A stretch of 50,713 nucleotides of DNA from Colwellia sp. (GCA_022969175.1 JALJPB010000027.1:1-50713); one strand, 5' to 3'. Positions 7,723 to 42,809 are shown, counted from the first letter of the stretch. Translations and numbers: made by a program. The notes: a model not told the origin generated them from the sequence alone.

Positions 7723-9012
7723 TTATTTAGCTAGGCTAGTAAATAACTTTTCAAAAGCGTCTAAACCTTCATTGGCAATTTCATCACTGATGGTTAGCGC
7801 TGGTAGAAAACGAATAACATTACCGTAAAAACCACAGGATAATAAAATCAAACCATATTCAGCGGCTTTACCAATGACCGCTTGCGTAAGTTCCGTATTG
7901 GCATTTTCACTATCACCGTCTTTCATTAACTCAATAGCAATCATTGAACCTTGATTACGGACATCAGAAATTAGTTGTGGATACTGGCTTTGCAGTGCGG
8001 TTAAACGTTCGTTAAACAATGAGCCAATGTGATTGGAACGTTCAATGAGGTTTTCTTCTTCAATAACTTCTAATACGGCAAGGGCCGCAGCACAAGCAAC
8101 AGGAGAACCACCATAAGTGCCACCTAAGCCGCCAGGTAATGGTGCGTCCATTATTCCACTTTTTCCGACAACGGCTGAAATTGGGAAACCACCAGCAATG
8201 CCTTTCGCCATGGTCATAATATCGGCTTCAACACCTGAGTGCTCGAAGCTGAACATTTTACCGGTACGGCCAAAACCTGTTTGAATTTCATCGGCGATTA
8301 GTACAATGCCATGTTCATCACATAGTTCACGTAGCGCTTGTAAAAATTCTGTTGGCGCTGCATAGAAGCCGCCTTCGCCTTGTACGGGTTCAACAATAAT
8401 GGCTGCAACATCTGAAGGGGCAATATCGACTTTAAATAAATTCTGTACGGCAGTGATTGCATCTTTCACGGAAATATTATGTTGCTCAATGGGGAACGGG
8501 GCATGAAAAATATCACCAGGGAATGGGCCAAATAAGTTTTTATATGGCGTGATTTTCCCCGTTAGCGCCATGGTTAAATTGGTACGACCGTGGAAACCTC
8601 CATTAAAGGCAATAACACCACGACGACCGGTATGTGCTCGTGCAATTTTCACACAGTTTTCAACCGCTTCTGCGCCTGTTGAAACAAAAATAGCTTTTTT
8701 CTCACTAGTACCTGGCGCAAGGGCCGTTAGTTTTTCAGCAAGCTCTACTGCGACTTCATATGGATTAACCATTACACAGGTATGACTGAATTTATCGACT
8801 TGTGCTTTTACTGCAGCAACAACTTTTGGGTGGCTATGGCCAGTATTACAAACGGCAATCCCGGTGCCAAAATCAATATAACGATTGCCTTCAACATCCC
8901 AAAGTTCAGACCCTTTGGCATGATCGGCATACACAGGATAAATATTGCCTTGACCACGAGCGATCACTTTAGTTTTACGAGCTTGTAATTGTGCATTAGT
9001 TGATTGAATCAT
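7723..9012 (-). CDS. gabT: 4-aminobutyrate--2-oxoglutarate aminotransferase (class III PLP aminotransferase)
   Basis: 429 aa; near full-length resemblance to GabT, including the VIARGQG N-terminus and the PLP-lysine region. Confidence 0.9.
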   Translation of the reverse strand: MIQSTNAQLQARKTKVIARGQGNIYPVYADHAKGSELWDVEGNRYIDFGTGIAVCNTGHSHPKVVAAVKAQVDKFSHTCVMVNPYEVAVELAEKLTALAPGTSEKKAIFVSTGAEAVENCVKIARAHTGRRGVIAFNGGFHGRTNLTMALTGKITPYKNLFGPFPGDIFHAPFPIEQHNISVKDAITAVQNLFKVDIAPSDVAAIIVEPVQGEGGFYAAPTEFLQALRELCDEHGIVLIADEIQTGFGRTGKMFSFEHSGVEADIMTMAKGIAGGFPISAVVGKSGIMDAPLPGGLGGTYGGSPVACAAALAVLEVIEEENLIERSNHIGSLFNERLTALQSQYPQLISDVRNQGSMIAIELMKDGDSENANTELTQAVIGKAAEYGLILLSCGFYGNVIRFLPALTISDEIANEGLDAFEKLFTSLAK

Positions 9013-9196
9013 TGTCTGTACCTATTAAATTTGTTTGATAAACTTACATAGTAAAATTTTCTTAGTAAGTTGGGGGCTTGGTCCGTTCAGCCCACATGGA
9101 TACCCCCACTTAAACTGAGCTGAAAAACCCTCAGCTGTTTTTAGCGGGACTTGGCTAAAATATGTATTAAGCTATTTGTCTAAACTAGTTGCCTAG

Positions 9197-10663
9197 CTAC
9201 TTATCTAAGCCTCCCATGCATAAATATTTGATTTCTAGGAAGTCATCTAAACCGTATTTAGAACCTTCTCTACCATTACCTGATTGCTTAACACCACCAA
9301 ACGGTGCTGCAGCATTTGAAATTAAACCTTCGTTTATGCCAACCATGCCATATTCTAATCCTTCAGCAACTCGCCAAATACGGCCGATATCACGAGAATA
9401 AAAATAAGCCGCTAAGCCATATTCGGTATCATTTGCCATAGCAATGACTTCACTTTCATCTTTAAAAGTAATGATGGGTGATACTGGGCCAAATATTTCA
9501 TTACTTGCCGCGGGCATATCATTAGTTACACCGGTTAAAATAGTAGGAAGATAGAAGTTTTCATTTTCACCTTTTTTGCCACCTAAAACTATTTTAGCGC
9601 CTGCCGCAACTGAGTCGTCTACTAACTTTGCGACATCTTTAACGGCATTTGCGTTGATCATTGGGCCAATAGTGACACCGTCGATTAAACCATTGCCGAT
9701 TTTAAGTTCTTCAACAGCAGCAATAAATTTTTCAGTAAACTCAGCTAATACGCCCTCTTGAACGAATATGCGATTAGTACATACACAAGTTTGTCCAGCA
9801 TTTCGGTATTTAGAAACCATAGCACCGGCAATTGCTGCATCAATATCTGCATCATCAAAGACAATAAACGGCGCATTGCCGCCTAATTCCATCGAGACTT
9901 TTTTAACAGTTGAAGCACATTGGCTAATGAGTGATTTACCAACAGGCGTAGAACCGGTAAAAGTGAATTTAGCAATGTCTGGATGTTCAGTGAGTACTTT
10001 GCCCATGCCACGGGCGTCGTCACCAACAACAACGTTAAATACGCCAGCAGGAATACCTGCTCGCTCGGCAAGTTCTGCCATTGCTAATGCTGATAATGGC
10101 GTTTGTGTCGCTGGGCGAACAACAAAAGTACAACCTGCTGATAATGCAGCTGCTGCTTTACGAGCGATCATCGCATTTGGAAAGTTCCAAGGAGTAATTG
10201 CTGCAACCACGCCGATAGGCTGTTTGATAACAATAATGCGCTTATCTGTTGATGGCGCAGGAATAGTATCGCCATAAACACGTTTACCTTCTTCGGCAAA
10301 CCATTCAATAAATGCGGCACCATAGGCAATTTCGCCTTTAGCTTCAGCTAACGGTTTGCCTTGCTCTAAGGTGAGAATACGGCCTAAATCATCTTGATGT
10401 TCCATCATTAAGTTAAACCAATTGCGCATTAGGGTTGCGCGTTCGTTGGCTGATTTGGCTGACCACATTTTAAAAGAATTTTTAGCCGCTCGTACGGCAA
10501 GTTCTGTTTCTGCAATACCGGCATTACTGACTTTAGCGACCAACTCACCTGTTGCGGGGTTGGTAACGTCAATATCGCTACTGCCCTCAGTGGCACTTGG
10601 GTGCCAGCTACCATTAATGTATGAGAAATTTTTAACTAATTGGCTATCTTTAATACCGATCAT
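9197..10663 (-). CDS. gabD: Succinate-semialdehyde dehydrogenase (NAD(P)+), aldehyde dehydrogenase family
   Basis: 488 aa; ALDH glutamate/cysteine motifs (ELGGNAP, GQTCVCTNR); immediately upstream of gabT in the same orientation. Confidence 0.9.
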   Translation of the reverse strand: MIGIKDSQLVKNFSYINGSWHPSATEGSSDIDVTNPATGELVAKVSNAGIAETELAVRAAKNSFKMWSAKSANERATLMRNWFNLMMEHQDDLGRILTLEQGKPLAEAKGEIAYGAAFIEWFAEEGKRVYGDTIPAPSTDKRIIVIKQPIGVVAAITPWNFPNAMIARKAAAALSAGCTFVVRPATQTPLSALAMAELAERAGIPAGVFNVVVGDDARGMGKVLTEHPDIAKFTFTGSTPVGKSLISQCASTVKKVSMELGGNAPFIVFDDADIDAAIAGAMVSKYRNAGQTCVCTNRIFVQEGVLAEFTEKFIAAVEELKIGNGLIDGVTIGPMINANAVKDVAKLVDDSVAAGAKIVLGGKKGENENFYLPTILTGVTNDMPAASNEIFGPVSPIITFKDESEVIAMANDTEYGLAAYFYSRDIGRIWRVAEGLEYGMVGINEGLISNAAAPFGGVKQSGNGREGSKYGLDDFLEIKYLCMGGLDK

Positions 10664-10852
10664 ATTGTTGTCCTCTTTAATATCGACTTCATCATTTACT
10701 GCTATTAATTAAAGGTAATTGATGAAAAAGTTTACTTAAGGCTATTGAATATCATTTCTAACTCAGGTTAAATGCAAAACATTCAACCTAAAGGTTTGAG
10801 TAATTCAAACTTTAAATGTTGTTATTGCGAGTTTACATCGAGAGTTAATAGT

Positions 10853-11776
10853 ATGGCTAAATATTCAATTATCCCCAAACCCGTCACTGAGTATGATTTA
10901 CGATTATTACGGATTTTTAAAGCCGTGGTAGAAAATGGTGGATTTGCTGCGGCTGAAACTGAATTAGGGGTAACCCGCTCTACTATTAGTTTGCATATGT
11001 CTAATTTAGAAGCTCGCATGAAACTTAAACTGTGCTTGCGGGGCAGGGGCGGATTTTCATTAACTGAAGACGGCCAATCTGTATATCAAGCCACGATAAA
11101 TATGTTTGACTCTCTAGATGATTTTTCTTTGTTTATTGGCTCTTTAGGTAAAGAGCTTAGTGGTGAATTGGTGATTTTATGTGCAGATCAGCTTGGCATT
11201 GCTAAACAAAAAAAGTTGGCCGAGGTCATTCAAATCGTACATGATAAATCACCTAAGTTGCATTTAGTACTCGATGGAGATTCAATTCACAATATAGAAA
11301 AATCGTTACTAAAAGATAAAGCACACATAGGTATTTTTCCCGGCTACCAACAAATTGAGGGCTTGCAGTATCAACCGTTGATTAGTGAGCCAATATACCT
11401 ATGTTGTGGTAATCACCACCCATTTTTTGAGTTGGTCGATAAAGACATCAATGCTGAAATGTTAGCCGAAGCACCGGCAATTCACCCCGGAATTGATATT
11501 GATACCCAAGGGCGAGAGCAACTTAAAAAGCTCAACCTTGCCGCCAAGGCCTATCAATTTGATACCCGTAAAGCGATGATATTATCTGGTCGATACTTAG
11601 GTTACATGCCTCAAAGTTACATTCAGCAAGAGCTTAATCAAGGGCTGATCAGAATAATAAAACCCAGTGAATTAACTTATCAGTTTGACTTATCTTTAGT
11701 AGTAAAAAAAACACCTAGGGAGAATAATAAAGTGGCCTTGTTACAACAGGCTTTCGAGACCGTTTTTACTCAATGA
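10853..11776 (+). CDS. LysR-family transcriptional regulator divergent from gabD-gabT
   Basis: N-terminal LysR HTH (LRLLRIFKAVVENGGFAAAETELGVTRSTISLHMSNLE); start re-set to the ATG at 10853 (the ORF-track start at 10772 adds a Cys-rich non-LysR extension). Confidence 0.8.
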   Translation: MAKYSIIPKPVTEYDLRLLRIFKAVVENGGFAAAETELGVTRSTISLHMSNLEARMKLKLCLRGRGGFSLTEDGQSVYQATINMFDSLDDFSLFIGSLGKELSGELVILCADQLGIAKQKKLAEVIQIVHDKSPKLHLVLDGDSIHNIEKSLLKDKAHIGIFPGYQQIEGLQYQPLISEPIYLCCGNHHPFFELVDKDINAEMLAEAPAIHPGIDIDTQGREQLKKLNLAAKAYQFDTRKAMILSGRYLGYMPQSYIQQELNQGLIRIIKPSELTYQFDLSLVVKKTPRENNKVALLQQAFETVFTQ

Positions 11777-12048
11777 TTGAGACTAAGATCCCCACTGGTT
11801 TTTTGATACATCATTATATAAACTTTTTTCAATCGACGACTCAACAGCCAAACAATACTAAGTAAAATAATAAACCTTAAGTTTTGTTTTTTTATAACTT
11901 TAAATTTTATTTGTAAGATAATCCCCGTTAACTCTTTCTAATAGTTATATTGTCTGAGATTACCTCTAATACAGATTGAACTACTCGCTAACTATGCTAT
12001 TTTTATTAAAGGTGAATTTAAACGTTCGACCCCCTAAGGTTATTGAAA

Positions 12049-12744
12049 ATGCTAAGATTGTTTTTATTATTGTTGGTAAATGTTGTATTCGTTATTCCTA
12101 TGTCTTTAGCGCAACAGGTGAAAGTTGAGGTTATAGACCCTAATGCTATCGGTGTTGAGCATATGGTGGTTTATTTGGAGCCAGTCAATAAACCACAAAA
12201 CGTAGTGATCAATAGCAAACCACTTTTAGTTGAAAAGCACGTTGTTGGACAAACAGTGATTGCCCAAAAAGATAAAGCGTTTATTCCTTATATTACCGTT
12301 ACCCAAAAAGGCCAACAGCTTTCATTTCAAAATCAAGATGATATTACCCATCACATATATTCCGTTTCAGGTAAAAATCGTTTTTCTTTTAAAATAAAAG
12401 CAGGTAAAGAAAAATCTTCGCCTGTGCTTGAGCATACTGGCGAAGTTGCCATGGGCTGTAATATTCATGACTGGATGAGTGGTTTTGTTTTAGTGGTAGA
12501 TACACCTTATTATGCACAAACTGATGATAACGGCATAGCCACGCTTGATTTAGCCACGGGTGGAGAATATCAATTGGTGGTTTGGCATCCACAATTACCG
12601 ACGAAGAACTATCAAATAGCACAGCTGATTACTGTGTCTAACAATGATGAAGATAATGAGTGGAAAATTAAGTTACCAGTACATTTATTGGCCATTCCTG
12701 AGCAAGAAAATCAGGATGAATTTGACTTTTTAGAAGGATACTAA
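12049..12744 (+). CDS. Periplasmic cupredoxin-like protein (putative type-1 copper site)
   Basis: Signal peptide; His...Cys-x2-His-x2-Met (HIYS...GCNIHDWM) ligand arrangement typical of cupredoxins; the ORF-track start at 12043 is TTG, ATG at 12049 preferred. Confidence 0.45.
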   Translation: MLRLFLLLLVNVVFVIPMSLAQQVKVEVIDPNAIGVEHMVVYLEPVNKPQNVVINSKPLLVEKHVVGQTVIAQKDKAFIPYITVTQKGQQLSFQNQDDITHHIYSVSGKNRFSFKIKAGKEKSSPVLEHTGEVAMGCNIHDWMSGFVLVVDTPYYAQTDDNGIATLDLATGGEYQLVVWHPQLPTKNYQIAQLITVSNNDEDNEWKIKLPVHLLAIPEQENQDEFDFLEGY

Positions 12745-16901: not shown

Positions 16902-19652
16902 ATGTCAAATTCTTCATTATCTCCGCTTATATTAGTCGATGGTTCGTCTTATTTATTCCGTGCGTACCATGTGCCTTATTTACAGGCATTATCCACTGCT
17001 GATGGTCAACCTACCGGCGCTATTACCGGTGTATTAAATATGATACGTAGTCTTAAAAAAGATTACCCCAACGGTAACATTATTGCGATTTTTGATGCGA
17101 AAGGTAAAACTTTTCGTAATGACTTGTATCCAGAATATAAAGCCAATCGCCCACCAATGCCTGATGATTTACGTACACAGATTGAGCCGATACATCAAAT
17201 TATTGCCGCCATGGGTTTACCGCTAATTGTGACGCCAGGAGTTGAAGCTGATGATGTTATTGGCACTTTAGCTGCTCAAGCGACAGAGCTTGGTATTGAG
17301 ACCGTTATTTCAACGGGTGATAAAGATATGGCGCAGTTGGTTAACCAACATGTACGTCTAATCAATACCATGACAGATGTTGAATTGGATGAAGCTGGCG
17401 TATTAGAAAAATTTGGCGTTAGACCCGATCAAATTATCGATTACTTAACCTTAATGGGCGACAAAGTTGACAACATTCCTGGCGTTGATAAATGTGGTCC
17501 TAAAACCGCCGTTAAATGGTTAGCCGAATATGGCACATTAGATGAAGTTATGGCTAATGCCGATAAAGTGAAAGGTAAGGTAGGTGAAAATTTACGTTCT
17601 GCATTAGAGAAATTACCTCTTTCTTATCAACTCGCCACTATTAAACTTGATGTTGAACTAGAGCAAACAGCTGGTGAGTTACAACCTAAAGACGCAGACG
17701 TTGAAGTATTGACTGAGCTGTATCAAAAATTTGAATTGAAACGTTTATTAGCCGATCTACAATCAGGTAATAAAGGTAAGGTAAAAACTGAAAGTAATAG
17801 TGATGAAGACAGTGAGGATGCTGTTGTTGATTCCGGTATAGAAACTGAATATGACATTGTTTTAACCAAAGAAAGCTTTGGACTATGGTTAACTAAGTTA
17901 AAAGCGTCCGAGTATTTTGCCTTTGATACTGAAACCACTAGTGTTAATTATAGTAAAGCTGAATTAGTCGGTTTATCATTTTCTGTAGAAGCTGGAAAAG
18001 CTGCTTATGTGCCAGTAGCCCATGATTATATTGACGCACCTGAGCAACTTGATCGCGATTGGGTATTAGCGCAATTAAAACCATTACTTGAAAGTAATGA
18101 CCTTAAAAAACTAGGTCAAAATTTAAAATATGATGCCAATGTATTGTCTCATTACGGCATAAAATTACAAAATATTGCCTTTGATACTATGATCGAGTCT
18201 TACTGTCTTAACAGTGTCGCGACAAGACATAACATGGACGCACTTGCCCTTAAATATCTAGGTTACAAAACGGTAAAATTTGAAGATATTGCCGGCAAAG
18301 GTAAAAAACAACTGACCTTTAATCAAATAGACTTAGAAAAAGCGGGCCCGTATGCTGCTGAAGATGCTGATATTACTTTACGATTGCATCAAGCTATTTA
18401 TCCAAAACTCAGTAAAGCCACCAAGCAACTAGAGGTTTATAACAGCATTGAAATGCCGTTACTGCCTGTACTTGCTGGTATGGAACAACATGGCGTATTG
18501 ATTGACAGCGACTTGCTTGATCAACAAAGCACCAAAATTGGTACTCGATTAGATGAATTAGAAATAAAAGCTCATGATCTTGCCGGTAAATCATTTAACT
18601 TAAGTTCACCAAAACAGTTACAAGAGATATTATTCACCGAGCTTAAAATTCCGGTGATTAAAAAAACGCCTAAGGGAGCGCCTTCTACCGCAGAAGAAGT
18701 ATTACAAGAGTTAGCGTTAGATTATCCATTACCTAAAGTTATTTTAGAACACCGTGGTTTAAGTAAACTCAAATCAACTTATACCGATAAACTGCCTTTG
18801 TTAGTTGATCCAAAAACTAACCGAGTACATACCTCTTATCAACAAGCGGTTGCGGCGACCGGGCGTTTATCGTCAACCGATCCAAACTTACAGAATATTC
18901 CAATTCGCTCAGAAGAAGGTCGAAAAATTCGATTAGCGTTTATTGCACCAAAAGACCACAAAATAGTCGCAATAGATTATTCACAAATTGAATTACGTAT
19001 TATGGCGCACTTAAGTGATGATCCTGGATTAGTTGCCGCGTTCTCTGAAGGAAGGGACGTGCATAAAGCGACAGCCTCAGAAGTGTTTGGCGTAACTTTA
19101 GACGAAGTAACCAGCGATCAACGTCGTAGCGCTAAGGCGATTAACTTTGGTTTAATCTATGGTATGTCAGCTTTTGGCTTAGCTAAACAGCTCAACATTG
19201 GCCGTCATCAAGCACAAGAATATATGGATAAGTATTTTGAGCGCTACCCTAATGTATTAACCTATATGGAAGAAACTCGTGAACAAGCGGCAGAGCAGGG
19301 TTATGTTGAAACCGTATTTGGTCGTCGCCTATATTTACCCGATATTAAAGCTAAAAATGCCATGCGAAGAAAAGGGGCAGAACGCGCAGCGATCAATGCG
19401 CCAATGCAAGGCACAGCAGCGGATATTATTAAAAAGGCAATGTTATCAGTTGCTGCTTGGATTAGTGAACAAAATGACCCTCGTATTGTGATGACCATGC
19501 AAGTACACGATGAATTGATATTTGAAATTCATCAAGACATTGTTGAAGCAACAACGGCCAAATTGGTTGAATTGATGAATGATGCTGTAGAGTTAAGTGT
19601 GCCATTAATCGCCGAAGCAGGTATTGGCGACAACTGGGAACAAGCGCATTAA
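16902..19652 (+). CDS. polA: DNA polymerase I (5'-3' exonuclease, 3'-5' exonuclease and polymerase domains)
   Basis: 916 aa; full-length Pol I resemblance (5'-nuclease LILVDGSSYLFRAYH, 3'-5' exonuclease FAFDTETTS, polymerase motifs RRSAKAINFGLIYG, QVHDELIFE); the ORF-track start at 16860 is GTG, ATG at 16902 preferred. Confidence 0.95.
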   Translation: MSNSSLSPLILVDGSSYLFRAYHVPYLQALSTADGQPTGAITGVLNMIRSLKKDYPNGNIIAIFDAKGKTFRNDLYPEYKANRPPMPDDLRTQIEPIHQIIAAMGLPLIVTPGVEADDVIGTLAAQATELGIETVISTGDKDMAQLVNQHVRLINTMTDVELDEAGVLEKFGVRPDQIIDYLTLMGDKVDNIPGVDKCGPKTAVKWLAEYGTLDEVMANADKVKGKVGENLRSALEKLPLSYQLATIKLDVELEQTAGELQPKDADVEVLTELYQKFELKRLLADLQSGNKGKVKTESNSDEDSEDAVVDSGIETEYDIVLTKESFGLWLTKLKASEYFAFDTETTSVNYSKAELVGLSFSVEAGKAAYVPVAHDYIDAPEQLDRDWVLAQLKPLLESNDLKKLGQNLKYDANVLSHYGIKLQNIAFDTMIESYCLNSVATRHNMDALALKYLGYKTVKFEDIAGKGKKQLTFNQIDLEKAGPYAAEDADITLRLHQAIYPKLSKATKQLEVYNSIEMPLLPVLAGMEQHGVLIDSDLLDQQSTKIGTRLDELEIKAHDLAGKSFNLSSPKQLQEILFTELKIPVIKKTPKGAPSTAEEVLQELALDYPLPKVILEHRGLSKLKSTYTDKLPLLVDPKTNRVHTSYQQAVAATGRLSSTDPNLQNIPIRSEEGRKIRLAFIAPKDHKIVAIDYSQIELRIMAHLSDDPGLVAAFSEGRDVHKATASEVFGVTLDEVTSDQRRSAKAINFGLIYGMSAFGLAKQLNIGRHQAQEYMDKYFERYPNVLTYMEETREQAAEQGYVETVFGRRLYLPDIKAKNAMRRKGAERAAINAPMQGTAADIIKKAMLSVAAWISEQNDPRIVMTMQVHDELIFEIHQDIVEATTAKLVELMNDAVELSVPLIAEAGIGDNWEQAH

Positions 19653-19761
19653 CTCTTACTCTTTATATTGGTTTAGTTAGCTGAAATTTTTTTAGCAAAA
19701 GCTCGTTCTTATAAATAACACTGGCATTTGAATCCCTTTATGTCCGTGTGTTCAGTATTTT

Positions 19762-19788
19762 GGACCTCCCCGTGAGGTCCTTTTTTTT
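19762..19788 (+). terminator. Rho-independent terminator (GGACCTC-cccgt-GAGGTCC-T8), 110 nt downstream of the polA stop
   Basis: Perfect 7-bp GC-rich stem followed by a T-run. Confidence 0.6.
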
Positions 19789-19983
19789 GCTAAAAATACA
19801 CAATATAGACAGTGTAAAGACAAGAAGAACAGTAAAATTGGTCTCTGCATTAAGTTGACAGTATTAATGATTGTAATGGATGGTTAACCCTTAACCCTAA
19901 CGACACACTTTGTGCTGTGAGTGTTGATAATAATCAGCGATTAACTGCAAAGCTCTTCTAGTGAGTACAAAGCAATATTGTAA

Positions 19984-20013
19984 TAAAATAAAATAAAATA
20001 AAATAAATTAAAT
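19984..20013. repeat. Simple (AAAAT)n microsatellite, about 5 units
   Basis: aaaataaaataaaataaaataaatt read directly. Confidence 0.6.
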
Positions 20014-20082
20014 AAAAGTGTAAGTTTTTGACCTTAGCCTTCACTAACACTATATAAATATTTAAAACAGGTCGGAAAAAAT

Positions 20083-20337
20083 ATGAGCATAACTTCACCA
20101 ACTTCACCAGCAAATATAAAGTCGAGTACGCAGCCTACTGAAAAAGCTATGCAGGGATTCTTAAAGATGCTGTCTTTTTATCTGCTTTCATTTACTTTTT
20201 GGATTGGGCTATTTATTAACAATGAAGGCCCTGGCGGTGTTGAATTACAACACTTGATATTGATGGGTGTTTGTCATGCGATGTTGATTTTCATACATTT
20301 CATAGGTGTGTTTCAAAGAGAAGAAGAAAATACTTAA
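20083..20337 (+). CDS. Hypothetical small membrane protein
   Basis: 84 aa; two hydrophobic segments; TTGACC-17-TATATA promoter-like sequence upstream; no recognisable family. Confidence 0.3.
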   Translation: MSITSPTSPANIKSSTQPTEKAMQGFLKMLSFYLLSFTFWIGLFINNEGPGGVELQHLILMGVCHAMLIFIHFIGVFQREEENT

Positions 20338-20474
20338 TCATCGCTAGTTAATCGCTAGTATCAAAAAGTGCCTTAGCATGTTTGATACAAGGGATATTTG
20401 GTATCTAGTCAAATTAACTGATAAGACTTTGTGTAATTAAATTACAATATGGTAAATTAATTACATTTTTACCT

Positions 20475-20503
20475 TTACAAGGTTAGAGTTATCACTCTAT
20501 AAT
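20475..20503 (+). promoter_or_regulatory. Near-consensus sigma-70 promoter TTACAA-N17-TATAAT
   Basis: -35 at 20475..20480, 17-nt spacer, perfect -10 at 20498..20503. Confidence 0.5.
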
Positions 20504-20509
20504 GCTCTT

Positions 20510-20597
20510 GTTCCCTAACGCGAACCTTGTTGTAATATTTTATTCTAGCTTTCCTCATAGCTAATACGCCGATAGCCTTGCTGTCGGCTTTTTTTTT
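20510..20597 (+). ncRNA. Candidate about 88-nt sRNA bracketed by the promoter at 20475 and an intrinsic terminator (GCCGATAGC-cttg-CTGTCGGC-T9)
   Basis: No ORF; promoter and terminator spacing define a discrete small transcript; not matched to a known sRNA family. Confidence 0.35.
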
Positions 20598-20684
20598 GCC
20601 TACAGGACGTAGGCAAGGGGCGTGAGCAGGAGCAGAAGCTTTGCCTACAGGAAGTAGGTAGGGCGAGAGCAGGAGGAGAAAGCT
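20598..20684 (+). repeat. Two tandem about 45-nt units, each starting with a hairpin GCCTAC-AGGA(c/a)-GTAGG followed by GGA-rich single-stranded sequence
   Basis: Unit 1 20598..20642, unit 2 20643..20684; AGGA sits in the hairpin loops; further GGA motifs (CAGGAG, CAGGAGGAG) in the linkers. Confidence 0.5.
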
Positions 20685-20932
20685 ACGGCTATTTATCGAA
20701 ATAAAGTGAAGTAAAAAATCCAAATGTTGCCATTAAATAACACCTTAAAATTTGAGAAATAACGTTTTAATTGTATTTATGCTGAGCATAGTTATGTTTA
20801 ATCAACAATTTTGAACTTGGTATGAAATTTAAATTATGGTGCTGAGACCAAATAGCTTGTAATTTTAAATCAAGTTCTATCGCTTTTTCATTCGATTCAT
20901 TTCTGATTGGATTATTACTCTTTATTTCTTGA

Positions 20933-21146
20933 GAAGAATTAGCGGCAGTTTCAAAAAAATCACCGCATCATAACGACTCAGTTCATCTTCCAAAGAGCTG
21001 TGCATGGTAGTAAAAAAATCCTGTTCAGGACCAGGCCAATAAGCAAGACCAGCTAAGCTTCCTCGGTCAGATAAAATTATACGGTTAGGGTGCATAGTAC
21101 GAACAGCATGCTCTAAGTGTTTTTGTAAATTTAAAATCGCAATTTA
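20933..21146 (-). pseudogene. 5'-truncated gene remnant (about 70 codons, no start codon), reading ...LEHAVRTMHPNRIILSDRGSLAGLAYWPGPEQDFFTTMHSSLEDELSRYDAVIF...
   Basis: Open frame between two stops without an in-frame start and RBS; flanked by repeats and non-coding DNA. Confidence 0.25.
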
Positions 21147-21248
21147 ATGAGCCATTGCGATAAAAAGTTGAAAGATTGTATTATCATAGCAGTATGGAAA
21201 GCGGTTAAGATTATTACCCATCAATAAAAGTGACGTTGAGGAAGTATT

Positions 21249-21473
21249 ATGACATTAGATACAGATGTAGGGAGTATAGAAAATATAGAAAAAGCATTAT
21301 GCCCAGTATGTCAAAACAACAACAATTGTGATGTAAAAAATAATGCCGGCTGCTGGTGTATGACCATAGATGTACCTGCCGCACTGATTGAAAGCCTTAA
21401 AAGTAGCGATAAAGATAAACGCTGTATTTGCCAAGCTTGCATTGAAAAATTTAAACTTGGCAAAAGTGTATAA
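21249..21473 (+). CDS. Cysteine-rich CWC-family small protein
   Basis: 74 aa; CPVC-x5-C...GCWCM...CICQAC cysteine pattern reminiscent of the Cys_rich_CWC family. Confidence 0.45.
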   Translation: MTLDTDVGSIENIEKALCPVCQNNNNCDVKNNAGCWCMTIDVPAALIESLKSSDKDKRCICQACIEKFKLGKSV

Positions 21474-21486
21474 GTTACACCGTTAG

Positions 21487-21906
21487 TTATTCGGTTTGGC
21501 TTGAGTCCATATTTTTAAGAGAGCGTAGAAACAAACCCAATCCACCTATTGCCAGTACTAGAATAGTGATTAAATCAAATGCACTCATGGTTTTAAAACT
21601 GAAACGTATTGAAGAGATAACACCAAAGATTAAGCCGGTAATAGAGCCTAAAGCCAGTAACCAGCCTAAAATATTTTTGCTGTTATAAAATATAATGCCG
21701 ATGCCAATCATAAATGGGATCATAATTATGCCGCTGGTAATACTGTAGTTACCACCAAAGGCTGAAACACCGTATAACCTTGCACCCATACCAAAATTAG
21801 AAGAAACCGATATTGCGTTAAGTAGCAAATAAAAGCCTCCACACATCATAATAAAACCAATAAAAAATTGACCTAAACCACCTGATGTTCCACCTGCTCC
21901 TCGCAT
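21487..21906 (-). CDS. Hypothetical integral membrane protein (four TM segments)
   Basis: 139 aa; Gly-rich N-terminus then four hydrophobic helices. Confidence 0.5.
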   Translation of the reverse strand: MRGAGGTSGGLGQFFIGFIMMCGGFYLLLNAISVSSNFGMGARLYGVSAFGGNYSITSGIIMIPFMIGIGIIFYNSKNILGWLLALGSITGLIFGVISSIRFSFKTMSAFDLITILVLAIGGLGLFLRSLKNMDSSQTE

Positions 21907-21998
21907 ACTTAATCCTTTTTTTTTGTGTTTGTTTATTGTAATTATTGTCTGTCTTTATTTTATTGTGAATAGGTAAAAGCCCTATTTAATGAGTGCTA

Positions 21999-22187
21999 TT
22001 ATGCCGCCATTAAATAGGACTCTTGTCCTTTATATTTTGCTTTACGCTGGTATGCGCCTTTACCTTTCTTAGCCTTAACAACTTGAACTTTATAGGCTTT
22101 AGATGTCACCAGTGCAGCAAGAAAATTATCTTTAATTTCGCCTCTACCAATATCAATGGCGTGAGATTTGTTTTTTGATTTACTCAT
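21999..22187 (-). CDS. arfA: Alternative ribosome-rescue factor A
   Basis: 62 aa; GEIKDNFLAALV...KAKKGKGAYQRKAKYKG aligns with E. coli ArfA (GQIKDNAIEALL...KNKKGKGSYMRKGKH). Confidence 0.65.
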   Translation of the reverse strand: MSKSKNKSHAIDIGRGEIKDNFLAALVTSKAYKVQVVKAKKGKGAYQRKAKYKGQESYLMAA

Positions 22188-22298
22188 TATTTACTCTCTT
22201 TATCGTTTTAGATTTTGATTAGGTATTAATTGTTAATACCTGCGTATTATATCTGAGACTTGAGAGTATTCAATAATGAAATTTATAAACTACCTTAA

Positions 22299-22715
22299 CT
22301 AATACCGATTTCGTTGGCTGGGTACATCACTAAGGTATTCAACAAACTCTACTTCAAAGCCATTTGGGTCTAAAAAGTAGACATTTTTACGATACTCATC
22401 TTCAGCCCCCTGCTTATCTACAGAAAAACCAACACTGGCTAAGCGTTCTATCATCGCATTAAGATTGTTTGTTACAAACGCAAAGTGCGCTAACCCTACT
22501 TGATGGCCACTCAGATCTCTATTGCTATCAATACCATCATCGTTAAAGGTTAGGTATTGGTAATCGTCACCAAAATGGACCCAGTTTCTAGGTTTGCCAT
22601 GCCACTTACTTTTATCGCCGCCCCTTATCGACCAATGTGGAAACGCAGCCTGGTAAAAAGTTAAGGTTTCTGGGATATCGCGTACAACTAAATTTAAGTG
22701 TTCAAGGTGTAACAT
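22299..22715 (-). CDS. VOC/glyoxalase-bleomycin-resistance-dioxygenase superfamily protein
   Basis: 138 aa; LHLEHLNLVVRD...HFAF and C-terminal YFLDPNGFEVEFVE typical of VOC beta-alpha-beta-beta-beta modules. Confidence 0.7.
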   Translation of the reverse strand: MLHLEHLNLVVRDIPETLTFYQAAFPHWSIRGGDKSKWHGKPRNWVHFGDDYQYLTFNDDGIDSNRDLSGHQVGLAHFAFVTNNLNAMIERLASVGFSVDKQGAEDEYRKNVYFLDPNGFEVEFVEYLSDVPSQRNRY

Positions 22716-39231: not shown

Positions 39232-39879
39232 TTAATCTAAAGTTAGTAGGTACTGGACTAACTTTTTATAGTCATTTTCAAAATCGCTTCTATCTAGCGC
39301 TTTAGTATTGATTAGGTATTTATTATTAATAACAAGCGTAGGTACGGATTTTAATGCACGTTTGTTTGTTAATTCATCTTGAAACTTCTTCATTTTTTTA
39401 GCTTGGCTATTGACTGAAAAACTACTCATTAACTTATCAAATTTTTCACCATCAGCACCATTTAAGACAAAGATGTTACGGATGTCTTTTTCTGAAGAAA
39501 TTATTGCCCGCTGTACATGAATATAATTGAACAAGGCACCGACTAATTTTTTCTCCATTTTCAATTGTTGGGCAACCACGACAGCTTTTGAAAGCATAAA
39601 TTGTATTTCAGGAGATGCGGCACGAAGAAAATCAACGTGGTTACGTTTAAACTTCGTATTATCAGGTAATTCTTTTTTCACTTCTTCCATAAAGGGTTCA
39701 GAGCTAAAACAGTGTGGGCAATAAAACGAAAAGTATTCTCTGACTTCAGGTTTGCTAGATAACGCTTCGCCAACTTTAATGTATTGTTTGCCTTCTTGGT
39801 AGTCAGCGGCATTTGCCATAAATGGTAAAAGTAGTGCCAGACAAAAAGTGAACGACAGGGTGGTTATTTTTTTTATCAT
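39232..39879 (-). CDS. dsbA: Periplasmic thiol:disulfide oxidoreductase DsbA
   Basis: 215 aa; signal peptide; FSFYCPHCFS (CPHC active site) in a thioredoxin fold. Confidence 0.85.
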   Translation of the reverse strand: MIKKITTLSFTFCLALLLPFMANAADYQEGKQYIKVGEALSSKPEVREYFSFYCPHCFSSEPFMEEVKKELPDNTKFKRNHVDFLRAASPEIQFMLSKAVVVAQQLKMEKKLVGALFNYIHVQRAIISSEKDIRNIFVLNGADGEKFDKLMSSFSVNSQAKKMKKFQDELTNKRALKSVPTLVINNKYLINTKALDRSDFENDYKKLVQYLLTLD

Positions 39880-39919
39880 GAGTTATTCCTATGGTTAGCC
39901 AAATCTCAGGCTATAAAAT

Positions 39920-40903
39920 CTAATACGCGGGTAATAAAGTTAATGGTGGCTGTTGCAGAGCAGACATTTGCTCTTTTAACATTAAAATTTGCTGTTCCCA
40001 ATACTTGTCACTTTCAAACCATGGAAAGTTACGAGGGAATGCAGGGTCTTGCCATCGTTTACATAACCAAGCCATATAATTTACCACGCGCATGGTACGT
40101 AGGGATTCTATCAAAATTAGTTGGTCATTTTCAAATTTAAAAAACTCTTCATAGCCAGATAACATAGTATCTAATTGTAATAATTGTTGTTGTCTGTCGC
40201 CAGATAGCATCATCCATAAGTCTTGTATCGCAGGCCCAGTGCGGCAGTCATCAAGATCAACAAAGTGAGGGCCTTCTCCTTCGCGCCATAAAATATTACC
40301 TGCATGACAATCACCATGTAACCTAATTTGATGTTTAGGTTGATACTGTTTTACGGCTTCGGTAATAACGACATCTAAAATAGTAAAAAATGCAGTGTGC
40401 AAGTAGCTAGGAACAAATCCTGAATTTGCAATAATATCTTTTGCTTGATATAGCATTTCATCAACGGTAAATTTTGGCCGATGAATAAAGGGCTTTTGTG
40501 CCCCTACGGCATGCATACGACCAACAAATCGACCCATCCATTCAAGTTGATCTAAATTATCTACTTCAAAAATACGACCACCACGGCAAGGATATACTGC
40601 AAATTGATAGCCTTGATGGGTAAAAAGGCTTTCTCCTTTAATTTTTAGTGGTGCAATAACGGGGATTTCTTGGTCTTGCAACTCAAAACCAAAGTGATGC
40701 TCTTCCCTTAGTTGTGCATCACTCCAACGCTGGGGACGATAAAATTTAGTGACAAATTTCACCATATTGTCATCATGAAATTGGTAAACCCTATTTTCAT
40801 AACTATTAAGGGCTAATAAGCCGCTATCGACAGTAAAATCGACAGATTCTAAGCCATCGATGATAAGATCAGGTGTGAGTGAAGTAAAATCAAATACAGA
40901 CAT
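39920..40903 (-). CDS. srkA: Stress-response Ser/Thr kinase SrkA (YihE/RdoA), the conserved gene upstream of dsbA
   Basis: 327 aa; YihE-like N-terminus, HGDCHAGNILW catalytic-loop motif, DLDD; yihE-dsbA synteny as in E. coli. Confidence 0.8.
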   Translation of the reverse strand: MSVFDFTSLTPDLIIDGLESVDFTVDSGLLALNSYENRVYQFHDDNMVKFVTKFYRPQRWSDAQLREEHHFGFELQDQEIPVIAPLKIKGESLFTHQGYQFAVYPCRGGRIFEVDNLDQLEWMGRFVGRMHAVGAQKPFIHRPKFTVDEMLYQAKDIIANSGFVPSYLHTAFFTILDVVITEAVKQYQPKHQIRLHGDCHAGNILWREGEGPHFVDLDDCRTGPAIQDLWMMLSGDRQQQLLQLDTMLSGYEEFFKFENDQLILIESLRTMRVVNYMAWLCKRWQDPAFPRNFPWFESDKYWEQQILMLKEQMSALQQPPLTLLPAY

Positions 40904-42452: not shown

Positions 42453-42809
42453 ATGAAAAAATTATTGATCTTAATCGTTGGATTTGCGTTATTTCTACAC
42501 TTTTATCCTCAGCCAGAGCTTGAAGAATGGTTTCAAGGGATTAAAGGTGACGCTTTGGATGGTTTTTCAGATACCTTTGATACTGAAGCCAGGCTAAAAA
42601 CTGATGTAATTTTAATTGAATTACAAAAGGATATGAAGACATTCACATCTAAAGAACGGGCGCAATTAACAGAAATTGCTGACTCACGCCGGTCAGTCAA
42701 AGCCTTTTATACCGACTATTGTGTAGCCAAAAAACGTGAATTTAAAATGCGAGCTGGGGTTCAAGCTAAAATTTGTAAAACAATATCAAAGCATACGAGA
42801 CTTTTATAA
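42453..42809 (+). CDS. Hypothetical exported or membrane-anchored small protein
   Basis: 118 aa; N-terminal hydrophobic segment; no family recognised. Confidence 0.4.
   Translation: MKKLLILIVGFALFLHFYPQPELEEWFQGIKGDALDGFSDTFDTEARLKTDVILIELQKDMKTFTSKERAQLTEIADSRRSVKAFYTDYCVAKKREFKMRAGVQAKICKTISKHTRLL

Follow-up and report, generated by a model that had tools for sequence, protein, structure and literature searches.

The window, that is, the whole stretch of 50,713 nt of Colwellia sp. DNA that was analyzed, has a GC content of approximately 37% and carries polA on its plus strand. Approximately 0.85 kb downstream of polA lies a compact block in which two HexR-type palindromes, a sigma-70 promoter, and a predicted small RNA (sRNA) with an intrinsic terminator are followed by two tandem copies of a 45-bp element. 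The features of this region are as follows:

16902-19652, plus strand: polA
19762-19780: polA's own terminator
20083-20337: 84-aa ORF between polA and the sRNA block, specific to the window
20432-20446, no strand: distal HexR-type operator TGTAATTAAATTACA, 15/15 against the published HexR consensus, centered at approximately -71
20451-20465, no strand: proximal HexR-type operator GGTAAATTAATTACA, 12/15 against the consensus and 9/10 in the arms, centered at approximately -52
20474-20503, plus strand: sigma-70 promoter, TTTACA, 18-nt spacer, TATAAT, 11/12 consensus matches
20484-20499, no strand: palindrome TAGAGT-N4-ACTCTA in the promoter spacer, overlapping the -10 hexamer
20510-20597, plus strand: predicted sRNA of 88 nt with three stem-loops, its 5' end placed from the position of the -10 hexamer
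20510-20525, plus strand: stem-loop SL1, from folding and RNAalifold
20526-20537, plus strand: invariant single-stranded 12-mer CUUGUUGUAAUA, within a 20-nt unpaired stretch
20546-20563, plus strand: stem-loop SL2, with the loop UUCCUCAU at 20551-20558
20568-20588, then T9 to 20597, plus strand: intrinsic terminator with a stem of nine pairs, six of them G-C
20596-20640, plus strand: element copy 1, hairpin loop AGGAC (nhmmer E = 1.6e-13, model from 114 copies)
20641-20684, plus strand: element copy 2, hairpin loop AGGAA (nhmmer E = 3e-08)

The promoter, the terminator, the tandem units, and their AGGA loops had been picked out in an earlier note on this DNA, and all of them are present at these coordinates. 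The polA loci of relatives, fetched through PolA homologs, served for comparison, together with one locus obtained from a metagenome scan (L068). L003, L002, and L068 are from close relatives, and the remaining loci are from Cognaticolwellia mytili (L004), Colwellia sp. 1_MG-2023 (L006), Thalassotalea (L005 and L127), and a Cognaticolwellia MAG (L128). The sRNA block was found in eight of the nine Colwelliaceae loci examined, which represent Colwellia, Cognaticolwellia, and Thalassotalea; no sRNA gene was detected downstream of polA in the one MAG (L128). Of the eight loci that carry the gene, five (L003, L004, L005, L006, and L127) have it directly 3' of polA; in L002, three inserted genes place it 4.5 kb away from polA, and its promoter, HexR boxes, and terminator are retained. 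The genes downstream of the sRNA in the relatives' loci encode AAA_28, or a 62-64-aa protein and a Band_7 protein, and yihA/engB was not found on this far side in the relatives' loci or among the scanned ORFs of the window. Since the downstream neighbors are convergent and no plus-strand gene follows, the block does not serve as a leader or riboswitch.

A predicted small RNA gene conserved in Colwelliaceae

Consensus scans returned 11 promoter-like sites against 12.6 expected and three terminator-like sites against 2.4 expected, and because these numbers are not above chance, the case for a real gene rests on conservation across genomes. The promoter-RNA-terminator block is conserved in the orthologs at 74-92% identity over the stretch that begins with the upstream palindromes and ends with the U-run, and its flanks are not alignable. 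The promoter hexamers (TTTACA at 20474-20479 and TATAAT at 20498-20503) constitute the top promoter-like site within 19000-22500, for which TTACAA-17-TATAAT is an equally valid parse. The promoter motif CTTTACAA is invariant in eight orthologs, in which the -10 hexamer is TATAAT or TATACT.

The predicted RNA at 20510-20597 folds with an MFE of -22.1 kcal/mol (z = -4.64), and none of 200 shuffled sequences was as stable. In the consensus structure, 97% of the pair cells were paired, compared with 20-47% in slid controls. Compensatory changes across genera were found at two stem pairs of the terminator (U-A to G-C and G-C to A-U). Three helix pairs showed changes on both sides among just six distinct sequences, in which SL2 is invariant, and the covariation support for the structure is modest. 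The CU-rich loop of SL2, UUCCUCAU, is complementary to the Shine-Dalgarno sequence and is kept in seven of the eight orthologs, that of L002 having diverged to UUAUUUAA. The RNA is non-coding because it contains no ATG and its orthologs differ by indels of 1 and 4 nt, which are not multiples of three. The non-coding transcript of approximately 88 nt that the earlier note had delimited by this promoter and terminator is, thus, borne out as a unit conserved in other genomes.

At gathering thresholds, the whole window gave no match to any Rfam family, including CsrB, CsrC, Rsm, and Spot_42; at E values of up to 10, the matches were just generic Hfq-type sRNAs, far below the threshold and driven by the terminator. 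A search of IMG/VR with the sRNA core returned chance matches only. Complementarity to the seed within the window DNA was not beyond chance and pointed to no target, and no characterized sRNA regulator was found to be reported in the literature for Colwelliaceae. As a side observation, the terminator sequence had a single match in genome contigs, a 29-nt terminator that follows a tRNA in Fibrella musci and is identical by chance.

Judging from its conservation and structure, the segment 20474-20597 is a real, conserved small RNA gene that lies outside the Rfam families. The features of an Hfq-type sRNA layout are present, namely, its own promoter, a conserved single-stranded seed, and a terminator hairpin with a long U tail. 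The sRNA probably represents a new family of a known kind, which is trans-acting, Hfq-dependent, and under the control of a metabolic regulator.

HexR-type operators and the relation to Spot 42

HexR is a KDPG-sensing regulator of the RpiR family, and Shewanella is a genus of Alteromonadales. In Shewanella, central carbon metabolism is governed by HexR and PdhR as global regulators, not by CRP and FruR (PMC3223726). The HexR consensus, as quoted from RegPrecise, is TGTAATTAAATTACA (PMC11906056), and the distal box at 20432-20446 is its sole exact match in the window. Within the clade of the window, the distal box is exact in L003 and L002 and has three mismatches in L068; this extra box is situated 19 nt further upstream than the proximal one (30 nt in L002). 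In each of the eight orthologs, exactly 8 nt separate the -35 hexamer from a HexR-type box, the arms of which are conserved and of the TGTAA/TTACA type and the central 5 nt of which are variable. The arms perfectly match TGTAA-N5-TTACA in six of the eight loci, and the boxes of the other two each have one arm mismatch. This motif has just two occurrences in 1.44 Mb of unrelated loci and is strongly enriched at the sRNA loci. The palindrome in the promoter spacer (20484-20499), the arms of which are invariant and the center variable in four genomes, is re-registered in Thalassotalea as TATAGA-N5-TCTATA and is possibly a second operator.

Similar to HexR-activated genes in the HexR regulons of Shewanella, Vibrio, and Pseudomonas, the consensus-identical 15-bp palindrome is located upstream of the promoter, whereas the regulon members found in the literature are protein-coding central-carbon genes and the candidate here is an sRNA. 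A full-text literature search yielded no report of an HexR-controlled sRNA; for Bns1, an sRNA of Neisseria, experiments showed that it does not depend on HexR. No protein of the HexR/RpiR family was matched among the scanned ORFs of the window. An HexR-like site with two mismatches at 42611, upstream of ccoG, was judged to be a chance match. For the upstream palindromes, boxes of the NtcA, LexA, TyrR, ArcA, and LacI types were rejected by inspection on spacing or sequence, and CRP and GacA boxes by a formal motif test; a CRP box (TGTGA-N6-TCACA, up to two arm mismatches) was not found in 20330-20600, and no UvrY/GacA box (TGTAAG-N6-CTTACA, up to three arm mismatches) was detected.

The observed conservation and structure of the sRNA, together with the consensus match and fixed position of the operator, suggest the following model. 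The strong sigma-70 promoter would drive the predicted expression of an 88-nt RNA composed of a 5' hairpin, a 20-nt single strand, a second hairpin, and a Rho-independent terminator. HexR is predicted to bind the operators at approximately -52 and -71 when KDPG is low and to activate transcription; activation is predicted from the position rule for HexR, by which a site upstream of the promoter leads to activation and a downstream site to repression (PMC11906056). Sugar catabolism would raise KDPG and lead to the loss of the sRNA, and, since HexR operators lie beside the -35 hexamer, its transcription is most likely coupled to sugar (Entner-Doudoroff) flux. The locus is, thus, probably switched by the sugar-sensing HexR. 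Regarding the direction of regulation, HexR could equally repress the gene rather than activate it because a near-consensus promoter may need no activator, and an operator centered at -52 is not at a classical activator position. Pairing of the sRNA with its presumed target mRNAs is expected to involve the 12-mer and/or the CCUC loop, probably assisted by Hfq, and may tune the translation or stability of these targets.

Spot 42 (spf) occupies the slot downstream of polA in enteric bacteria and Vibrio. The gene order polA-spf-yihA was confirmed in E. coli, where csrC lies approximately 1 kb beyond spf, a coincidence that is worth noting, but not evidence for CsrA titration. Since the Colwelliaceae sRNA occupies the polA-downstream slot, it is by gene order the positional counterpart of Spot 42 and probably also its functional one, with HexR replacing CRP. 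Similar to Spot 42 (RF00021), it is predicted to be an independently transcribed sRNA of approximately 90-110 nt with a sigma-70 promoter, an operator for a carbon-status regulator, hairpins, single-stranded seeds, and a Rho-independent terminator. On the other hand, it has no detectable similarity to Spot 42 in its sequence or by covariance model, its operator is HexR-type instead of CRP-type, and neither the yihA/engB neighbor nor the small ORF spfP of Spot 42 has an equivalent at the Colwelliaceae sRNA, which has no ATG.

Three other accounts of the block need to be weighed against that of an HexR-linked sRNA gene. According to one, the conserved block is no gene in its own right but the 3' UTR and terminator of polA, in which a sequence resembles a promoter by chance. 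AT-rich DNA often contains promoter-like hexamers, and in L005, L006, and L127, the polA stop codon is followed by the block with no separate terminator in between, so that polA transcripts probably end at the sRNA terminator in these loci. However, polA in the window has its own terminator and is set apart from the block by the 84-aa ORF, the block of L002 has kept its promoter, HexR boxes, and terminator at a distance of 4.5 kb, and the spacing between the -35 hexamer, the -10 hexamer, and the operator is fixed across genera, which makes the UTR account very improbable. The upstream palindromes may instead be sites for another regulator of the GacA/UvrY type, the LacI type, or a different branch of the RpiR family. 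The assignment to HexR is made from the operator sequence, and TGTAA/TTACA half-sites are not unique to HexR, being common to several operator families, such as GalR/LacI-type, TyrR, and GacA boxes. Nevertheless, the spacing of TGTAA-N5-TTACA gives a 15-bp site, as opposed to 14 bp for the LacI type and 18 bp for TyrR and GacA, a GacA-type box was not found even with three arm mismatches, and the distal box matches the published HexR consensus at 15/15 positions; another regulator is, therefore, unlikely.

The third account, under which the sRNA would be genuinely orthologous to Spot 42, although highly diverged, and more than its positional counterpart, deserves more weight than these two, and we still regard it as rather doubtful. 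Both genes occupy the slot immediately 3' of polA, and they are similar in size, in a layout with three hairpins, and in their control by a transcription factor for carbon status (predicted here for HexR). Synteny has also led to the proposal of divergent spf candidates in other Alteromonadales (bioRxiv 10.64898/2026.07.10.737749); the sRNA core is not among the supplementary candidates of that study. When a covariance model built from the sRNA family (R1) was searched against the E. coli polA-spf-yihA-csrC locus, its best match fell on the 3' half of spf, but this match scored 14 bits (E = 0.29 in 10 kb) and came from the terminator and a AAUAUUUU stretch. The Rfam model Spot_42 (RF00021) gave no match at E values of up to 10 with inputs of 601, 103, and 106 nt, and a CRP box and a yihA/engB neighbor are both lacking.

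The dispersed 45-bp element and the question of CsrA titration

The two tandem units downstream of the sRNA are 88-90% identical, and each opens with a hairpin of 10-11 bp. Copy 1 occurs at the same spot in L003, L002, and L068 and is absent from L004, L005, L006, and L127; copy 2 was not found in L003 or L002, and L068 also holds two copies at the locus. The core of the element is GCCTAC-AGGAY-GTAGG…GCAGGAGCGGWAGC, bounded by TT. A scan of metagenome contigs with GCCTACAGGANGTAGGNANGG returned at least 120 stretches, approximately five of which are chance matches, the rest carrying the whole 45-nt unit. Among the matches listed, the nhmmer model identified 159 copies in 130 arrays at 119 loci; 111 of these 130 arrays consist of a single unit, and the remainder are head-to-tail arrays of two to five units with a 45-nt period. 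Also among the matches listed, the host loci have GC contents of 35-59%, some long contigs each carry several separate sites, and 21 arrays directly follow T-runs or terminators, as in the window. TT almost always precedes the unit.

The flanks form at least 49 distinct clusters. The named hosts are Colwellia, Psychrobium, Pseudoalteromonas, Saccharobesus, and Methylobacter, and the element is present, yet unannotated, in replicons of Pseudoalteromonas and Saccharobesus; it was not found in IMG/VR or phage genomes. Within the 50 kb of the window, the element was found at 20596-20684 only, and its dispersal in this genome is, therefore, suggested by relatives and other hosts. An (A/T)GGA loop is retained in sub-families whose stems differ, and the GGA loop of the element may have some function. 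Full-text literature searches for the DNA or peptide of the element returned unrelated primers or nothing, and a protein-database search with three copies of the element peptide returned no candidates. Repeats of 212 nt that alternate with arrays of the unit were tested as tRNA genes and are not tRNA genes.

Some of the copies lie inside genes. Among the matches listed, 29 of the 130 arrays are located within long open frames. At least 13 of the genes concerned are clearly real, and in these, the unit lies antisense, is read in one frame, and encodes KASAPAHAPYLRPVGK, i.e., KASAPAHAPYL(R/H)PVG(K/N), which adds 15 aa. In five genes, the insert falls within a Pfam domain match, namely, Mur_ligase_M, Molybdopterin (NarG), DUF3418 of HrpA, SBP_bac_5, and the IS66 DDE domain. 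Mpl orthologs of Methylobacter with identities higher than 90% include empty, filled, and nested longer variants. The empty site has the junction …KTSI/NADAQW… in a protein of 451 aa, and the filled site carries KASAPAHAPYLRPVG between KTSI and NADAQW in a protein of 465-466 aa. At the DNA level, the filled site reads ATC AA[A GCT…GGC AA]T and the empty site ATA AAT, a clean gain of 45 nt bounded by AA (TT in the orientation of the unit). These filled and empty sites show that the element is mobile and polymorphic. The 82-aa minus-strand ORF in the window, which had looked spurious in the earlier note, is indeed spurious because its peptide (…PYLLPVGKASAPAHAPCLRPVGK…) is the open frame of the element read through two copies.

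The element shares features with several groups of known repeats. Similar to REP/BIME sequences (and the REPINs mobilized by RAYT transposases), it is a short GC-rich palindromic unit with a GTAG motif in an AT-rich genome, which often follows terminators or lies between convergent genes, with many copies per genome that are sometimes clustered. In contrast to the alternating orientations of REP/BIME units, it forms head-to-tail direct repeats with a strict 45-nt period; moreover, approximately one-fifth of its arrays are inside open frames (among the matches listed), and it is nearly identical across orders (Alteromonadales and Methylococcales). The TT/AA that flanks the element on both sides fits the 2-bp duplication of a MITE or insertion at TT, and terminal inverted repeats are not apparent. 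The Rickettsia palindromic elements (RPE), like further intragenic MITEs such as QMITE1 of Coxiella, are palindromic, insert in frame into genes, and add a conserved peptide (PMC10969869). The present element resembles RPE as a selfish palindrome that lies in frame within functional genes and adds a conserved peptide; it differs in its size (45 bp and 15 aa instead of approximately 100-150 bp), its lack of evident terminal inverted repeats, its occurrence in free-living marine and freshwater Gammaproteobacteria, and its formation of tandem arrays. By these sequence comparisons, it differs from both REP and RPE in the combination of a 45-bp size, direct tandem arrays, near-identity across orders, and in-frame insertion.

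The earlier note had proposed that read-through of the sRNA or an independent transcript exposes the GGA hairpin loops and titrates CsrA, in the manner of a CsrB/RsmZ-like sponge. The region contains five AGGA motifs in 87 nt, approximately 30-fold the background density, which is 1.95 per kb across the window; the loops of stable hairpins contain two of these motifs, and the others lie in weakly structured stretches. Their CAGGA context resembles the repeats of CsrB, and the corresponding E. coli neighborhood carries csrC. The units are, thus, similar to CsrB, CsrC, RsmY, and RsmZ in being intergenic, in their high local density of AGGA, and in having some GGA in hairpin loops. However, the sRNA itself contains no GGA, and the units are situated behind a terminator with a 9-bp stem and U9, have no promoter of their own, and are not followed by a plus-strand terminator-like site in 20598-22015. 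The 18-bp UvrY/GacA upstream box was not found with up to three arm mismatches, and there is no Rfam match to CsrB, CsrC, or Rsm. When compared with the five criteria that define a CsrA-sequestering sRNA (PMC1488887), an own terminator and a UvrY/GacA box are missing, and GGA is found in loops for part of the motifs. Furthermore, unlike the known CsrA-titrating RNAs, the units are not conserved with their locus, other genera keeping the sRNA without them, and their five motifs belong to a dispersed repeat that occurs at dozens of unrelated sites and lies antisense inside genes, so that the mRNA carries UCC rather than GGA. We consider CsrA titration at this locus to be highly unlikely. Dispersal of the 45-nt unit over many loci, which the earlier note had set against its own CsrA proposal, is what was found (at least 49 flank contexts), and the REP-like repeat that it had offered as an alternative is the better reading. 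On the available sequence comparisons, the tandem hairpins at 20596-20684 are copies of a 45-bp mobile palindromic element and are incidental to the sRNA.

Overall interpretation and significance

The best explanation for the locus appears to be an HexR-linked sRNA gene and copies of an unrelated 45-bp mobile repeat that lie side by side, to which we assign a probability of approximately 0.7. On this reading, the element inserted, in the clade of the window, at the T-run with which the sRNA terminator ends, and two copies are now present in the window itself.

A more far-reaching proposal, which is tentative and falls short of even odds, is that the hairpin units represent a superfamily of tiny mobile elements that is as yet undescribed and that the sRNA is the first HexR-controlled sRNA and a stand-in for Spot 42. 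The element would then consist of a 43-bp core and TT, resulting in a net gain of 45 bp, and would be near-identical across gammaproteobacterial orders. Head-to-tail arrays would arise because the element ends in the same TT that it targets, and its survival inside the essential genes mpl, narG, nrdB, hrpA, and aroE would be attributable to the tolerated Ala/Pro-rich 15-mer encoded by the antisense frame. The (A/U)GGA loop, which is kept across the sub-families, may be the recognition site of a mobilizing enzyme or an RNA-binding protein, and the sRNA would replace Spot 42 in a lineage in which HexR took over the control of central carbon metabolism.

The element calls for caution in the annotation of many marine and methanotroph genomes, in which it gives rise to spurious ORFs, to GGA-rich pseudo-"CsrA sites", and, in housekeeping proteins, to inserts of 15 aa. 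It is possibly an exceptionally small mobile element that merits study for its own sake. Regarding the sRNA, its conservation together with a textbook HexR operator provides a testable link between KDPG/Entner-Doudoroff flux and post-transcriptional control in Colwelliaceae, which are cold-marine heterotrophs. If this link is true, the conserved polA-adjacent sRNA slot would be a case of regulatory rewiring, with CRP in enterics and HexR in this Shewanella-related lineage.

Promoter palindromes and the polA-sRNA interval

Regarding the region between polA and the predicted 88-nt sRNA gene, and the sRNA promoter itself, the following features were recorded.

Window 19982-20017: (AATAA)n tract, between polA and the sRNA gene
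Window 20083-20337: 84-aa hydrophobic ORF, no Pfam match, between polA and the sRNA gene
Window 20484-20499: palindrome TAGAGT-N4-ACTCTA, within the promoter spacer and overlapping the -10 element
L004 (Cognaticolwellia mytili) 8245-8259: additional HexR-type box, TGTAATAAAATTACA, with perfect arms, approximately 75 nt 3' of the sRNA terminator

The arms of the spacer palindrome were unchanged in four genomes, with variation at the centre, and its counterpart in Thalassotalea, TATAGA-N5-TCTATA, has been re-registered despite indels. Possibly, a repressor binds this palindrome as a second operator. No called gene was present behind the additional box in C. mytili.

Since neither the (AATAA)n tract nor the 84-aa ORF was found at the loci of a close relative (L003), C. 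mytili (L004), Thalassotalea (L005), and Colwellia sp. (L006), the segment at 19982-20337 looks like an insertion specific to the window. In another close relative (L002), a three-gene insertion of DUF3604, rotamase, and HupE/UreJ genes (7752-12300) separates polA from the sRNA gene (12402-12491); the spacing between the two HexR-type boxes is 11 nt larger, and the SL2 loop is UUAUUUAA versus UUCCUCAU. The sRNA gene is missing 3' of polA in a Cognaticolwellia MAG (L128, 5752-6260), the PolA of which is 83% identical.

An exact copy of the sRNA terminator, comprising the stem, loop, and T-run in a 29-nt stretch, follows a tRNA gene in Fibrella musci (L001, 955-983), an unrelated member of Bacteroidota. 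This match appears to reflect convergence of terminator sequences because it is confined to these 29 nt, beyond which this locus showed no further match to the sRNA locus.

Downstream pseudogene and relatives of the 45-bp unit

Window 20797-21152 (-): AAA_28 (P-loop) pseudogene, recognized by comparison with L003

The AAA_28 gene is intact in L003 (8200-8793), and the window copy lacks 62 N-terminal amino acids and carries an in-frame stop (21146-21144) and a frameshift near 20955-20958. The 57-aa ORF at 20922-21095 is a piece of this pseudogene.

At seven loci (L057, L060, L064, L088, L091, L100, and L113) and in a protein (P0140), the 45-bp unit has relatives that are longer or nested, with a second module placed after …GAGCA. 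These relatives contain other hairpins, of the form stem-(A/T)GGA-stem, such as CTGCA-TGGA-TGCAG. Within proteins, these variants give inserts such as KASAP[RQLLLHGSTSCVHGS]RAHAPYLRPVGN. One intergenic region (L039, 3900-4700) contains, in alternation, arrays of 1-3 units and a second repeat of 212 nt, which is not a tRNA.

Comparison with the E. coli polA neighbourhood

The gene order in E. coli K-12 is polA, spf, yihA, csrC (L207, 4049500-4051200), and, thus, Spot 42 and a genuine CsrA sponge are separated by approximately 1 kb. This arrangement curiously resembles that of the sRNA and subsequent GGA hairpins in the window. Furthermore, dsbA and srkA/yihE, which are polA neighbours in E. coli, adjoin each other in the window at 39232-40903 (-); therefore, part of the ancestral neighbourhood persists 20 kb away.
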